Shown one piece after another: positions 8,215-12,392 of a stretch of 64,000 nucleotides of DNA. A program made the translations under genes and the position numbers. The stretch lies in the NCBI GenBank assembly GCA_964600235.1, contig CAZRIV010000013.1, positions 21,258-85,257 of the forward strand, written 5' to 3'. The stretch comes from an uncultured Bacteriovoracaceae bacterium. Its GTDB lineage: Bacteria; Desulfobacterota; Desulfomonilia; UBA1062. Position 1 is the stretch's first letter, and each line of letters starts with the position of its first letter. Below the pieces are notes generated by a model. That model ran no database searches, was not told the origin of the DNA, and worked only from the letters and a program-made list of their open reading frames with translations.

Positions 8215-8838
8215 GTGAAAAGAACAGGTACCCAATCCAAGGGAAATAAACTCATCATGGTTTATATTGTTCTCGTATACCTCCTTCTCATTTACCCTGG
8301 CAGCTGCCTTGCCATGGGCGGCAACCCCGTGCCTACGGTCACGGTCATCGACGAGGAAACGGGAGAACCCATCGAGGGCGCTGTGGCCATTGCCATATGG
8401 CGGAAGCACAGCTTTAAAAGTGCATGGTTCGAAGGCGGGACTATGGTCGTGGTGAAAATCGAGGAAGCTCTTTCAGACACCAAAGGGAACATCTATATCG
8501 AAGACTTCTGGGACTGGCACTTCATCGAGGACAGATATCCCCGCCTGACCATTTACAAGCAGGGTTATGTCTGCTGGGACCAGAGAAATATTTACATTGA
8601 TGAACGACATGGGCCACGGCGGACCGACTTCGACGAGCAAAACCGCATCGCTAAAATGAGAAAATGGCCTGAAGGGTTCTCCTTCGTGGGACATAATACA
8701 TTTATTAGTTCTGTTACACACAATGATTACACTGATGCTCCCAAACAATTATTTAACAGGGCTTTTCGCTATGAGGCTCCTTTTTTTGTAAGAGAGCTTA
8801 GAGAAAGAAGTAGTAGAAAAAGGGGGGAAGTGCAATGA
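8215..8838 (+). CDS. Small secreted protein A1 (carboxypeptidase-regulatory/transthyretin-like fold suspected)
   Basis: Signal peptide ending CLA; VIDEETGEPIEGAVAIAIW...SDTKGNIYI; stop overlaps the next start (ATGA). Confidence 0.7.
   Translation: MKRTGTQSKGNKLIMVYIVLVYLLLIYPGSCLAMGGNPVPTVTVIDEETGEPIEGAVAIAIWRKHSFKSAWFEGGTMVVVKIEEALSDTKGNIYIEDFWDWHFIEDRYPRLTIYKQGYVCWDQRNIYIDERHGPRRTDFDEQNRIAKMRKWPEGFSFVGHNTFISSVTHNDYTDAPKQLFNRAFRYEAPFFVRELRERSSRKRGEVQ
8309..8694 (+). repeat. Near-identical block 1 of the tandem cassette (second copy 9683-10068)
   Basis: Offset 1374; only scattered substitutions by eye. Confidence 0.9.
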
Positions 8839-9536
8839 AACGTTTGAACGTTCTTGTTGTATTATTATGTCTAATTCTTGTTAACTATGGGTTAGCGTAT
8901 GATGACCGAACTACGCATCCACAGATTACAGAGGCTGTTATAGTCAAATCTGCACTAAATGATTATTTAATAGATTTTCTTGGTCTTCCGGGTGGTATTA
9001 AAACACCATATAATGGAACTACAATACTTACACTGCTTCAAGCCGGCAGCACGAACGAGGACCTGGACTCACGCGCGCTCAATCACTTCTGGAACCCGCT
9101 CTCTCTCACCTTCAGCCGACCCAGAAACGGGGGGCTTGATGATATCCTTATCGGTTACTCCAACAAGGACTGGGCAATGGGAGGCTTCTATGACTGCTCA
9201 ACATCAGGCGGATATGAGAGCGACTGCAGTTGCAATGACTACTCATGGAAGGTTGCCAGAAAAGAATTCTATGATGCCCTGACCTCCACCACCGAAACCA
9301 GCCGTAATGAGCACTTCAAAAAAATGTATGAAAGCCTGGGACGCATACTCCACCTCATCGAAGACATGGGCGTGCCTGCTCATACGCGTAATGACTTTGT
9401 GTACCTGTATTACAAATCCTCTTTCTCATCCCCTCAGAACCGGGGGGCAATAGTTCTTACTCCATTTTGGATTCTCGCTTCAGCAGAAATGATACAGGGA
9501 ACACATCAACTCCATCATCCAGTTTTGTGTGTATGA
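8835..9536 (+). pseudogene. Truncated protein B1 (N-terminal part of a Zn-PLC/P1-nuclease-like protein)
   Basis: Matches B2 up to HLIEDMGVPAHTRNDFV (to 9401), then diverges and stops at 233 aa versus 722 aa. Confidence 0.75.
9043..9401 (+). repeat. Near-identical block 2 of the tandem cassette (second copy 10435-10793)
   Basis: 359 bp at offset 1392; one synonymous mismatch seen (cctgct/ccagct). Confidence 0.9.
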
Positions 9537-9588
9537 AGAACAAGGATTTTTTGGAATCAGTTTATTTAATCAGTCTTAGGAGGCCAAT

Positions 9589-10227
9589 GTGAATAGCACA
9601 ACCATAAATTCCGGGATCAAAATACTATTGCTCATCATTCTTATCCTTATCTCTTTCCTCATTATTCAGCCCATGGAAACCTTTGCCATGGGCGGCAACC
9701 CCGTACCTACGGTCACGGTCATCAACGAGGAAACGGGAGAACCCATCGAGGGTGCTGTGGCCATTGCCATATGGCGGAAGCACAGCTTTAAAAGTGCATG
9801 GTTCGAAGGCGGGACCATGGTCGTGGTGAAAATCGAGGAAGCTCTTTCAGACACCAACGGGAACATCTATATCGAAGACTTCTGGGACTGGCACTTCATC
9901 GAGGACAGATACCCCCGCCTGACTATATACAAACAGGGTTATGTCTGCTGGGACCAGAGAAATATTTACATTGATGAACGACATGGACCACGGCGGACCG
10001 ACTTTGACGAGCAAAACCGTGTCGCCAAAATGAGAAAATGGCCGGAAGGGTTCTCGTTCGTTGGGCATGAAAGATTCGTGAACTCAGTAACATTTGGTGA
10101 TCACTCTGAAGCCCCGAAGCGTCTCTTTAACAAGGCATTCCATAATGAAATACCTTTCGCATCTAAAGAACGCGATAAAAAGAGGACGGAGGTGGAAATA
10201 GACAATAAGAGGAGGGGAGTTCAATGA
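9589..10227 (+). CDS. Small secreted protein A2, paralogue of A1
   Basis: RBS aggagg, GTG start, different signal peptide ending TFA; mature part nearly identical to A1 until GFSFVGH, then a different C-terminus. Confidence 0.75.
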   Translation: MNSTTINSGIKILLLIILILISFLIIQPMETFAMGGNPVPTVTVINEETGEPIEGAVAIAIWRKHSFKSAWFEGGTMVVVKIEEALSDTNGNIYIEDFWDWHFIEDRYPRLTIYKQGYVCWDQRNIYIDERHGPRRTDFDEQNRVAKMRKWPEGFSFVGHERFVNSVTFGDHSEAPKRLFNKAFHNEIPFASKERDKKRTEVEIDNKRRGVQ

Positions 10228-12392
10228 AACAAATGAATATACTTGTCGTAATAATGTGCATTGTAATTATGAATTATAATGCATTAGCGTATGATGATCG
10301 AACTACGCATCCACAGATTACTGAGGGTGTTATAGGAAAATCGGTTTTAGATATTTATCTCAAATCTTATCTGGGGCTTACTGCTGGAATAGGTACAATA
10401 TATAATGGAAAAACTGTTACTGAATTACTCCAAACCGGCAGCACGAACGAGGACCTGGACTCACGCGCGCTCAATCACTTCTGGAACCCGCTCTCTCTCA
10501 CCTTCAGCCGACCCAGAAACGGGGGGCTTGATGATATCCTTATCGGTTACTCCAACAAGGACTGGGCAATGGGAGGCTTCTATGACTGCTCAACATCAGG
10601 CGGATATGAGAGCGACTGCAGTTGCAATGACTACTCATGGAAGGTTGCCAGAAAAGAATTCTATGATGCCCTGACCTCCACCACCGAAACCAGCCGTAAT
10701 GAGCACTTCAAAAAAATGTATGAAAGCCTGGGACGCATACTCCACCTCATCGAAGACATGGGCGTGCCAGCTCATACGCGTAATGACTTTGTGGGGCATC
10801 TCGATTATACAAGGCTTGAGCATTGGTATCATATCTTCAATCCCAAGAATTACCTGGGGAATCTCTATGAATACCGTGTTAAATGCAATGCAGAAGATGA
10901 TTCATCTTACATATCAGACCTTGCATCATCCGTAACCATCCCATCCTTTGACAGCCCTCAGGAATACTGGGGAAACGGCATTTATAACGGCTCTAATCCA
11001 GGAATTACGATCACCGGCAGTGCTGGTCTTGCCGAATACACCAATGCCAATTTCCTGAGCAAGTACACTATCTTCACCAATACCTTGCCTCAGGATAATA
11101 AACACTATTTCCCCTACCCGAATGAAACAAGCGTCAGCTCTCTGGCATTTACCCCCCATATGGTCACAGCCGAAGATGGCAAGGTCGACCAGGTCCTGCA
11201 TCTGAAGAAAGACAAGCATGGCGAAAGCTTAGATAATTTTGTGGGCGCGAAATATGTTTGGTACAGGTTGTATGAAAAAAACACATTGACCGATTACACG
11301 CTTGCCTTCTTTCTTGATGACCCGGTCCATGAAGCATATGCCGACAAGCTTATCCCCAAGACCATCGGATATGCGGCAGGGCTTATAAACCACTTCTTCC
11401 GCGGGACATTGGAGGTGTCCCTTCCCGACTCCGGCGTATATGCCCTCAGAAACACACAGCCATCAGAACCCACGACCCAGGGGTTCGACCAGGTCTCGCT
11501 CATGGTGAAAAACTCTACGGGTACTGGCGAAAAATTGCTTGGCGGTACTGTTACTCTCGTCATCCAGTATAAGTTGCTCACAGATGACCCGAACGCCCCG
11601 GATCCCCGTATCGGGGCTAAAAACCCCCTCATCATATATGAGCCTCCCTATCCCCGATACAGCAGGGATATGTTCATCGTAAAAGAGCGTAATGTGGGCA
11701 GTGATGAGATAAGATCCGATATCCCGGTCCAGCTCGATTTCGACCTGGATACCGATATACCCTTATGGGCCGTGGACGTCAGAATAAATGTCGTTTACCA
11801 GGGCAGGCTCGGCCGGGAAAATCATTATATTGAAAACGATGCCATGTGTGTGGGTTTCAAGGACATCTCGGAGCCCACCCCCGTAGATATCGGCAACAAT
11901 ACTGATACTGCCTGTATGAATAATGTGTGGTACGATCTTAAGGATCCCCAGCAACGGCAGAATTTGAGTCAGGTTATAGACTTCGTCTGTCATGATTTGA
12001 CAGAGGAACCCCCGGGAGACTGGGAATCCCTCTATATCAGATTTACACCAAGCGACAGTTATGAAGAAGAGCCGCCTGCCAGATTCGATTACATGATCAC
12101 ATCGATACCTCCCGGCCATTATAAAAGGTTGTTTGTACTGAGCGACCGGCAGTTCAGAATATGGACATCATCTATATCAAATGACCCCATATGTAATACA
12201 GATGTGATACCTGCACTGGTAAACGGCCCGGCTTTAAGCAAAGAGCGGATGATCTGGAGATTCAGGGGGGTTGAGGGCTGGTTCTTTTATGATTTAATTG
12301 ATACCTGTGCTTCAATTTGTACTCTCGATACAGGTGAATGTCCCGGATGTGACAGCGAAAACAACCCATTCCCCTTTGTGAGAATGCCGTAG
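10224..12392 (+). CDS. Secreted protein B2 with N-terminal Zn-dependent phospholipase C / S1-P1 nuclease-like domain
   Basis: Signal peptide ending ALA followed by YDDRTTH; motifs EDLD..NHFWNP and LGRILHLIEDMGVPAH; long unassigned Cys-containing C-terminal half. Confidence 0.6.
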   Translation: MKQMNILVVIMCIVIMNYNALAYDDRTTHPQITEGVIGKSVLDIYLKSYLGLTAGIGTIYNGKTVTELLQTGSTNEDLDSRALNHFWNPLSLTFSRPRNGGLDDILIGYSNKDWAMGGFYDCSTSGGYESDCSCNDYSWKVARKEFYDALTSTTETSRNEHFKKMYESLGRILHLIEDMGVPAHTRNDFVGHLDYTRLEHWYHIFNPKNYLGNLYEYRVKCNAEDDSSYISDLASSVTIPSFDSPQEYWGNGIYNGSNPGITITGSAGLAEYTNANFLSKYTIFTNTLPQDNKHYFPYPNETSVSSLAFTPHMVTAEDGKVDQVLHLKKDKHGESLDNFVGAKYVWYRLYEKNTLTDYTLAFFLDDPVHEAYADKLIPKTIGYAAGLINHFFRGTLEVSLPDSGVYALRNTQPSEPTTQGFDQVSLMVKNSTGTGEKLLGGTVTLVIQYKLLTDDPNAPDPRIGAKNPLIIYEPPYPRYSRDMFIVKERNVGSDEIRSDIPVQLDFDLDTDIPLWAVDVRINVVYQGRLGRENHYIENDAMCVGFKDISEPTPVDIGNNTDTACMNNVWYDLKDPQQRQNLSQVIDFVCHDLTEEPPGDWESLYIRFTPSDSYEEEPPARFDYMITSIPPGHYKRLFVLSDRQFRIWTSSISNDPICNTDVIPALVNGPALSKERMIWRFRGVEGWFFYDLIDTCASICTLDTGECPGCDSENNPFPFVRMP

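Follow-up and report, generated by a model that had tools for sequence, protein, structure and literature searches.

Introduction

Loci of the contact-dependent growth inhibition (CDI) and Rhs types contain orphan toxin-immunity modules, and arrays of orphan immunity genes are found in the Vibrio cholerae clusters for type VI secretion systems (T6SS) (PMC3967940, PMC5361080). Tandem paralogues that recombine through conserved nucleotide blocks, namely esaG, tipC and lpl, have been described in Staphylococcus aureus and streptococci, and for lpl the unit of recombination starts in mid-gene, crosses the intergenic region and ends in the middle of the following gene; divergence is concentrated, furthermore, at the interfaces between colicin DNases and their immunity proteins (PMC9484751). 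Here we describe a tandem A/B locus at 8215-12392 of a 64,000-nt stretch of DNA (the window) from an uncultured Bacteriovoracaceae bacterium (contig CAZRIV010000013.1), in which two copies of a small gene, A, alternate with a truncated and a full-length copy of a gene, B, for a secreted protein, and in which near-identical arms enclose a strongly diverged, AT-rich module of about 350 bp that lies across the A-B gene junction.

Colicin E-type DNase/immunity pairs combine a conserved catalytic domain bearing a small variable patch with an adjacent small gene that has a matching variable part. In the pilE/pilS, vlsE/vls and msp2 systems, one full-length copy has partial silent cassettes beside it, which are variable in their centre and conserved at their flanks. 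The A/B locus can be set beside each of these arrangements. Our analysis followed a preliminary description of the window, whose core inference, exchange by recombination in the near-identical arms, was largely borne out; the observation itself is real and replicated. All coordinates refer to the window; related loci, taken from metagenomes and genomes, are labelled L001-L141, and their proteins carry P-numbers.

Results

Two tandem cassettes with near-identical arms and a diverged module

The list of open reading frames (ORFs) fills 8215-12392 with four ORFs on the plus strand, A1, B1, A2 and B2, and in both cassettes the A stop codon overlaps the start of the following B by 4 nt. A1 (8215-8838; 334 bits against the A-family hidden Markov model, HMM) is a 207-residue exported protein in which a hydrophobic helix at the N-terminus is followed by a transthyretin-like beta-sandwich and, at the C-terminus, by further helices, and A2 (9589-10227), supported by its ORF, the A-family HMM and a structure model, is a second complete copy of 212 residues. 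B2 (10224-12392) is a full-length secreted protein of 722 residues, with an N-terminal zinc phospholipase C-like helical domain followed by C-terminal beta-sandwich domains. B1 (8835-9536; 233 residues) is a truncated copy that covers HMM positions 1-191 only: its codons 1-189 are homologous to B2 and are followed by an unrelated tail of 44 codons, the homology ending at nt 9401, midway through the phospholipase C-like domain.

Pairwise alignment of 8202-9401 with 9578-10793, combined with counts for each segment, reveals a mosaic of conserved and variable parts. The left arm, corresponding to the A core (codons about 33-160; 8309-8694 in the first copy and 9683-10068 in the second), has 18 differences in 386 columns (95.3% identity). 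The right arm, the B core from the GSTNEDLD motif to AHTRNDFV (9043-9401 and 10435-10793), has a single difference in 359 columns. Between these arms lie the type 1 module (8695-9042), which extends from the A1 C-terminal helices through the gene overlap and the B1 signal peptide to take in some 48 residues of mature B1, and the type 2 module (10069-10434), composed of the A2 C-terminal helices, the B2 signal peptide and the first mature B2 helices; the two differ at 133 of 368 columns (64% identity, with indels), which sets them apart from both flanks (Fisher tests, p = 3e-29 and 2e-44). The GC content of the middle is 0.35-0.36 (0.35 in the type 1 module) against 0.52 in both flanks, and at third codon positions (GC3) it is 0.19-0.42 (type 1, 0.19-0.23) against 0.64-0.66. 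The A signal-peptide regions of the two cassettes share about 60% identity in DNA and 27% in protein. On all these points the preliminary description was accurate: the near-identical blocks (368 of 386 and 358 of 359 identical columns), the diverged AT-rich middle, the unrelated A signal peptides and a variable unit that joins the end of A to the start of B, spanning the A C-terminus and the B N-terminus, were recovered.

Within the variable module, a conserved island, YDDRTTHPQITE, is found at 8895-8933 and 10287-10325 with about 80% nucleotide identity and corresponds to the predicted mature N-terminus of B together with its first conserved histidine, H29. Such an island is a predicted functional anchor, so that the module would really consist of two variable stretches divided by it. 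The cassette junction (9402-9588) comprises the tail and stop codon of B1, a spacer of 53 nt and the A2 ribosome-binding site. Its unique portion measures 176 bp (9402-9577), and the alignment to the sequence upstream of A1 (from 8202) resumes at the AGGAG site at 9578. No homologue of the junction, taken as 9402-9577 or up to 9588, was found above shuffled controls in the whole window or in the 300 bp upstream of A1, and the end points of the original duplication can therefore not be reconstructed. A promoter and terminator scan gave counts not above those for shuffled sequence.

Nei-Gojobori estimates of synonymous (dS) and non-synonymous (dN) divergence between the two cassettes differ sharply along the alignment, with a gap in synonymous divergence of one to two orders of magnitude between flanks and middle. 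The A core gives dS 0.22 and dN 0.01 and the B core dS 0.013 and dN 0.004. In the middle, dS is saturated for the A tail (proportion of synonymous differences, pS, 0.82; dN 0.41), 2.2 for the B signal peptide (dN 0.28) and 1.14 for the variable B N-terminus (dN 0.38), dN/dS being below 1 across all of these segments; the A signal peptide gives dS 1.07 and dN 0.80. On these estimates the middle segment is evidently old and under purifying selection, and the flanks are evidently homogenised recently, at two different times (A core versus B core, p = 8e-5). The contrast in synonymous divergence between flanks and middle points to recombination or gene conversion as the process that made the mosaic.

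Other accounts of the middle segment were considered and rejected. Fast evolution after a recent duplication does not apply, given the saturation of synonymous sites in the module and a dN/dS below 1. An effect of amino-acid composition cannot account for the AT-richness, since GC3 falls too, nor can a recent foreign insertion in this genome only, since the same dip is present in every family member examined; all eight further loci that were checked show it (GC 0.28-0.36 against 0.43-0.58), and six of these are single-copy.

A related strain carries another module between the same arms

L135 (ENA ERZ27282986), a 1.2-kb contig of a closely related strain from an independent assembly, aligns over its full length to 9214-10414. 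It begins within a truncated B, whose out-of-homology tail is that of B1, and continues through the unique junction and a complete A into the next B. Its identity to the window is 95.2% in the B-fragment core, 94.9% in the junction, 90.5% in the A signal peptide and 93.5% in the A core, compared with 60.6% in the A tail, 69.7% in the B signal peptide and 68.9% in the B N-terminus. The L135 module matches neither type of the window and represents a third type at the orthologous position, between the same arms. A third module on flanks that are 91-95% identical argues that the middle was exchanged as a unit.

More distant loci show A tails of the window's types on other backgrounds. The A tail of L134 is 83-87% identical in nucleotides to that of cassette 2, and its A core 63-78%; at the protein level, the same comparison gives 90% for the A tail and 58% for the B N-terminus. 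In L003, the A tail is 82% identical to that of cassette 1 and the core 58-75%. A protein alignment of 34 A homologues likewise shows that tail types recur on different backgrounds. Island YDDRTTHPQITE could be a site at which the A-tail and B-N-terminus halves of the module recombine apart, as in L134. The preliminary description had proposed recombination or gene conversion via the flanks, and the dS contrast, the different middle of L135 and the A-tail types common to diverged loci all speak for it.

Each cassette consists of a complete A gene and the 5' part of a B gene, with only the last cassette running into a full-length B. We propose that the A and B cores are kept near identical between cassettes by gene conversion or homologous recombination. 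The module of about 350 bp, which encodes the helical tail of A and, for B, the signal peptide and the first two helices of the mature protein, would be an old, AT-rich allele, and recombination in the conserved arms would replace it as a unit, between cassettes as well as between strains. The B fragments would be displaced or stored 5' ends that conversion from the full-length B keeps in register. If the two B-core arms were to cross over, 1392 bp would be lost, and A1 and the B1 N-terminus would be joined to the body of the full-length B. From the comparison of sequences, we regard a recombination-maintained, exchangeable module as very probable.

Cassette arrays recur in other lineages

An A-profile scan of metagenomes gave mostly distant relatives, and close relatives came from exact-protein look-ups. 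The A family comprises 1341 cluster representatives at E <= 1e-3, and A/B genes occur in Desulfobacterota, Nitrospirota, Burkholderiales and other groups. A followed directly by B is the rule: 44 pairs pass a strict coverage filter among 140 loci, and most other scanned loci likewise have B directly 3' of A. Some A-family matches are 300-530 residues long with two or three matched stretches (P0204, P0221, P0229, P0252, P0283 and others) and may represent A domains fused in tandem, or else read-through from one A gene into its neighbour.

Arrays were identified by scanning the ORFs of the fetched loci with the HMMs. One or more cassettes of A and a short B precede A and a full-length B in a deltaproteobacterial metagenome-assembled genome (MAG; L056/L102, two extra cassettes), in a Nitrospirota MAG chromosome of 3.26 Mb (L086), in Smithella (L087) and on a 686-kb contig (L088), where two extra cassettes are accompanied by a further A-B pair downstream. 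Partial arrays are present in Nitrospinota (L089; A and short B, with the contig ending after a second A), Burkholderiales (L124; two short-B copies, cut by the contig end) and Desulfobacterales (L141; A, short B and a second A). The number of extra cassettes per array is one to three only, A is full length in every array cassette, and all short-B ORFs still have a signal peptide as well as their start codon and ribosome-binding site.

The array and its mosaic, with the same B boundary, are found in at least five other lineages. Nucleotide identity between cassettes in core, variable part and core is 95-100, 57-77 and 100% in L087, 93-95, 45-65 and 98-100% in L086, 82-95, 58-73 and 100% in L102, and 95-100, 48-60 and 65-92% in L088; for L141 the comparison covers the A genes only (core 88-100%, tail 46-75%). 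In protein alignments, the near-identity between short and full-length B always starts at the GSxxED motif followed by (C)RAxNHF.

A neutral conversion barrier might produce a comparable mosaic. An old tandem duplication would still be homogenised in its constrained cores, and the weakly constrained tail, signal peptide and first helices would have drifted past the identity that conversion needs, the mosaic being a by-product. Such a history is consistent with the A-side edge of the variable segment, which fades gradually in the cassette alignment, with dN/dS below 1 and no sign of positive selection in the variable part, and with the A tail and B N-terminus being the least conserved segments across 40 non-redundant A-B pairs (among close pairs, their identity averages 0.41 and 0.40, and that of the cores 0.69 and 0.65). 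It does not, however, predict the third module type of L135 at an orthologous site within closely similar flanks, or A-tail types common to loci whose cores are more diverged than their tails. The drop of GC3 within the module, the AT dip in single-copy loci as well and the repetition of one B boundary in at least five independent arrays also argue against it, and drift leaves unexplained why B 5' fragments with intact signal peptides have stayed open at dS > 1. We therefore consider neutral escape from conversion rather unlikely as the explanation and retain the exchangeable module.

Several loci contain A outside such arrays. An orphan A with a B fragment, in the absence of a full-length B, is found in L076, L078, L098, L099 and L141, and stand-alone A genes amid unrelated genes occur in L079 and L081, two MAGs labelled Bacteriovoracaceae. 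In these two related MAGs the gene lies between carboxylesterase and glycogen phosphorylase genes and looks orthologous; in L081 an IS200-like transposase (8579-9499 of that locus) is inserted directly after A. In L141 (Desulfobacterales bacterium HSG17), three tyrosine-integrase genes (positions 1-2367 of the locus) lie about 5 kb from the orphan set of two A genes and a short B, a hint that mobile DNA may carry or adjoin some of the cassette sets.

Predicted fold of B and truncation of B1

Searches of Pfam, NCBIfam and PDB sequences gave no match for B2, A1, A2 or B1, and a profile search against PDB sequences also gave none. The AlphaFold model of B2 (predicted local distance difference test, pLDDT, 83; predicted template modelling score, pTM, 0.86) folds residues 23-300 or so into a helical domain, which is followed by a helical hairpin and, from residue 394 on, by beta-sandwiches. 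Foldseek comparison of this model with the PDB returned as best match the Clostridium perfringens alpha-toxin (1ca1; E 1.2e-5, probability 1.00) and further the phosphatidylcholine-preferring phospholipase C (PC-PLC) of Bacillus cereus (2ffz; probability 0.97); template modelling (TM) scores to the two are low (0.17 and 0.29) because B2 has extra domains. The Pfam family PF00882 (Zn_dep_PLPC) is matched by 6 of 38 B homologues, with a best E of 5.6e-5.

Residues E76, D77, H85, F86, P89, H174, D178, P182, H184 and R186 are invariant in the B family, including HFxxP- and HxxxDxxxxxH-type motifs; H29 and E216 are nearly invariant, and a histidine around position 192 is conserved. PC-PLC binds its zinc ions through nine ligands, namely the N-terminal residue, five histidines, two aspartates and one glutamate. 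From a reading of the motifs, we take H29, D77, H85, H174, D178 and H184 to be the counterparts of PC-PLC H14, D55, H69, H118, D122 and H128. On the basis of the model, B has a predicted zinc phospholipase C-like fold, and its enzyme activity is putative. Together with the signal peptide of B2, which is of the Sec type by sequence inspection, this agrees with the secreted hydrolase of the preliminary description.

The variable part of B covers residues about 1-70, that is, the signal peptide plus the helices that precede the loop with E76 and D77. B1 keeps H174, D178 and H184 and loses everything past residue 189, including the histidine at about 192 and E216. A stop of the homology at residue 189, inside the helical domain, makes a complete catalytic domain impossible in B1, and the upstream module, described earlier as silent, indeed carries a truncated, non-catalytic B fragment. 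A separate observation concerns B2 itself: L140 (JGI 3300038673, Ga0416707_092607; protein P0193) equals the window at 10130-11376 except for a 47-bp deletion at about 10962-11008, located between two CAGGAAT repeats, that frameshifts B2 after about codon 245. The deletion could mark a variant in the population whose B2 is inactivated, or else be an error of assembly.

The short B may instead be functional itself, as a secreted N-terminal sub-domain that acts as a decoy, a regulator or a partner of A, and the arrays would then be ordinary paralogous operons. The retained translation signals and signal peptides of all short-B ORFs would fit such a role, as would the overlap of the short-B stop with the next A start in L087, L102 and L089 and the loci in which a short B lies beside A without any full-length B. 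Between the window and L135, moreover, the B1 core has 8 synonymous and 2 non-synonymous changes (pS 0.216; non-synonymous proportion, pN, 0.013). A low pN in the core is nevertheless what repeated copying off the full-length gene (358 of 359 columns identical) would give, and the B1 tail, with 3 synonymous and 5 non-synonymous changes, is almost neutral. The end points of short B differ by lineage (HMM positions 110-196), all within the one catalytic helical domain, and B1 lacks the conserved residues named above. A function of the short B in its own right is thus improbable, and the fragments are better read as displaced or stored parts of an exchangeable module.

Protein A, its covariation with B and the genomic context

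The model of A2 (pLDDT 86) has an N-terminal hydrophobic helix, a beta-sandwich at residues 42-150 and helices at 157-211, and the variable part of A coincides with this helical tail (the last 45 residues or so). A fold search of the PDB returned weak matches to transthyretin-like and pilin-like beta-sandwiches (E >= 0.02) and no functional lead. By sequence inspection, only Sec-type signal peptides are present on A and B.

Covariation was analysed in 40 non-redundant A-B pairs after A-core and B-core similarity had been regressed out. Similarity of the A tail and of the B N-terminus are correlated (partial r = 0.32), a value reached in 0 of 3000 permutations, and the control comparison of the A signal peptide with the B N-terminus gave r = 0.02. 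The preliminary description had spoken of a co-evolving A/B interface. The modest covariation would fit such a putative interface; physical linkage alone would explain the correlation equally, and in L134 the two halves are separate.

By analogy with toxin-immunity pairs, the module may encode a matched contact between the A tail and the B N-terminus, each A being the cognate partner of one type of B; A would then most likely be an inhibitor or an immunity-like protein. Upstream cassettes would be modules in store, or displaced ones, and the cell would still make use of their intact A copies; these copies, together with the orphan A genes, would protect against, or pair with, B types that are not resident. 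To call A and B a toxin-immunity pair is to draw an analogy, and we hold a cognate-partner or immunity-like role to be plausible, with a likelihood that falls somewhat short of even.

A giant secreted multi-domain protein of 1772 residues is encoded directly upstream of A1 (2855-8173, plus strand; Pfam PKD, beta-propeller, CarboxypepD_reg and Glucodextran_B). A large Glucodextran_B-carrying protein also lies directly upstream of A in L001, L003, L086, L087, L088, L113 and L121, of which L113 (Ramlibacter sp. WS9) and L121 (Desulforhabdus sp. TSK) are isolates, and a long ORF is found upstream of A/B in L138 and L139. The giant surface protein, A and B, in this order, form a conserved three-gene unit. 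The giant protein gene has 68-nt diverged repeats at 6530, 6761 and 7247 (60-71% identity), which correspond to repeated immunoglobulin-like domains with a terminal 'TTTYTITA' motif, and the last 110 residues or so of the protein have no Pfam match.

With this surface protein as companion, the locus might also be a surface-variation system, in which cassettes donate epitope changes to a secreted or surface-located A/B complex that escapes phages, predators or grazers, with no toxin-immunity relation. The position of partial cassettes, conserved at the flanks and variable in the centre, upstream of a single full-length copy would suit this, as would the adhesin-like character of the giant protein. 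Against it stand the small number of extra cassettes in each array, the completeness of the A copies, each with its own start codon, and the junction, in which no recombination-promoting element was seen; orphan A genes alone in unrelated contexts, moreover, fit a protective role better. Antigenic change of this kind seems to us as improbable as a function of the short B. An assembly artefact, with two strain alleles of a single A-B locus joined in tandem or a repeat mis-resolved, could be suspected in a window from an assembled contig whose 359-bp near-identical repeat exceeds the usual assembly k-mers, but is very improbable, since the independent L135 contains the truncated B end, the unique junction, the next A and the B start in one contig, the same array type lies on the 3.26-Mb chromosome of L086 and the 686-kb contig of L088, and a chimera would not yield 176 bp of unique junction sequence; the tandem reported in the preliminary description can accordingly be taken as genuine.

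Directly downstream of B2, 12471-13133 (plus strand) encodes a PEP-CTERM protein (Pfam PF07589 and NCBIfam PEP-CTERM models), given here only as context of the A/B unit; a protein with this sorting signal implies an exosortase system in this organism. Further along, a gene pair for LemA and a DUF2207 membrane protein (16874-19503, minus strand) is followed by genes for MacB-like ABC permeases and an HlyD-family protein (19596-23922), ordinary neighbours with no evident tie to the A/B unit. The 64-kb window contains no tRNA or tmRNA genes and no Rfam families at the gathering threshold.

Discussion

Taken as a whole, the proposal of an exchangeable module within an array of cognate partners appears to us about evenly balanced. 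A wider reading would make A/B a new polymorphic system of Sec-exported proteins, in which an AT-rich mini-module of about 350 bp sets the pairing and spare modules are kept upstream; it would be a mirror-image counterpart of CDI and Rhs at sub-domain scale and would serve to tell self from non-self or to antagonise other bacteria, by means of a phospholipase C-like enzyme that needs no dedicated injection machinery. We put this reading forward tentatively, as possible and on balance doubtful.

A number of observations weigh against an array of cognate partners. The variable part of B is a sub-segment of about 35-50 residues of a conserved enzyme and not a whole toxin domain. The covariation between A tail and B N-terminus fits a jointly inherited module, but it is modest, and physical linkage alone would suffice to produce it. 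The A2-type tail of L134, which comes without a B2-type N-terminus, indicates that the halves of the module are separable. No B1-type N-terminus on a full-length B was found among 100 B matches or in a dedicated search with the B1 N-terminus, whose sole close match, P0193 of L140, is B2 itself in another assembly. Short-B products might be made and used, as the stop/start overlaps and the ratio of synonymous to non-synonymous changes in the B1 core suggest. Finally, type V (T5), type VI (T6), type VII (T7) or other delivery genes are absent among the ten largest flanking ORFs, over about 15 kb and out to about nt 26,600.

Searches for polymorphic toxins would miss A/B, being geared to variable C-terminal domains and downstream cassettes; they also rely on known toxin and immunity families, and A and B2 match no Pfam or NCBIfam family. 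If the module sets the pairing of A and B, the locus would be a compact natural case of specificity encoded across a gene junction, and the well-defined homology arms would make a swap of about 350 bp an easy test. The proposal, if true, would also give a role to the widespread three-gene unit of giant Glucodextran_B surface protein, A and B in anaerobic bacteria of sediment and groundwater. Under a neutral reading, the locus would instead be a clean, replicated case of concerted evolution with a sharply bounded escape from conversion.

Among known systems, the orphan modules of CDI, Rhs and T6SS loci resemble A/B in having one full-length effector accompanied by extra cassettes, each with an intact partner gene and a truncated piece of the effector. 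They also have a potential recombination arm in the conserved sequence that adjoins the variable part, module types that are common to strains, and a small partner gene that adjoins the variable end and varies with it, as A does with B (partial r 0.32, for which linkage could give the same value). Rhs and CDI tips are low in GC, as is the variable module of A/B. The A/B layout is, however, mirrored, with the variable part N-terminal in B and both the small gene and the spare cassettes upstream. Variation affects 35-50 residues of B and the last 45 or so of A, in contrast to a whole toxin domain, and B has no variable C-terminal toxin domain past a conserved motif as CDI and Rhs proteins do. 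T5, T6 and T7 genes are likewise lacking near A/B in the window, where the proteins carry ordinary Sec signal peptides. Lacking two defining features, the variable C-terminal toxin domain and linked delivery, A/B is not filed by us as a classical polymorphic toxin.

The esaG, tipC and lpl paralogues have in common with A/B the non-identical tandem copies and the long near-identical blocks that flank variable DNA, which in A/B are arms of 386 nt (95%) and 359 nt (99.7%) around 350 nt at 64%. The lpl unit, from mid-gene to the middle of the next gene, has the geometry of the A/B module. The A/B unit differs in spanning two different genes, one of them a truncated enzyme gene. Between close strains, a change of content is seen in the L135 module, and a change of copy number was not observed, L135 being only 1.2 kb long. 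With the colicin E-type systems, A/B has in common a divergence at the gene junction while the remainder stays similar, the contact between A and B being a presumed one; colicin operons, on the other hand, are plasmid-borne single copies without truncated spare cassettes. B resembles the zinc-dependent phospholipases C (PF00882) in its all-helical N-terminal domain followed by one or more beta-sandwich domains, and differs in length: B2 has twice as many residues, some 420 additional ones forming the helical hairpin and beta-sandwiches. The pilS, vls and msp2 cassettes are similar in that partial copies with conserved flanks and a variable centre lie beside one full-length gene, here B. Those systems have many promoterless partial cassettes; A/B has one to three, each with start codons and a ribosome-binding site and with a complete second gene that has its own translation signals, and the hosts are free-living anaerobes. 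The principle of cassettes and orphan modules is thus known, and what is new is its mirrored layout in an uncharacterised and fairly widespread family.

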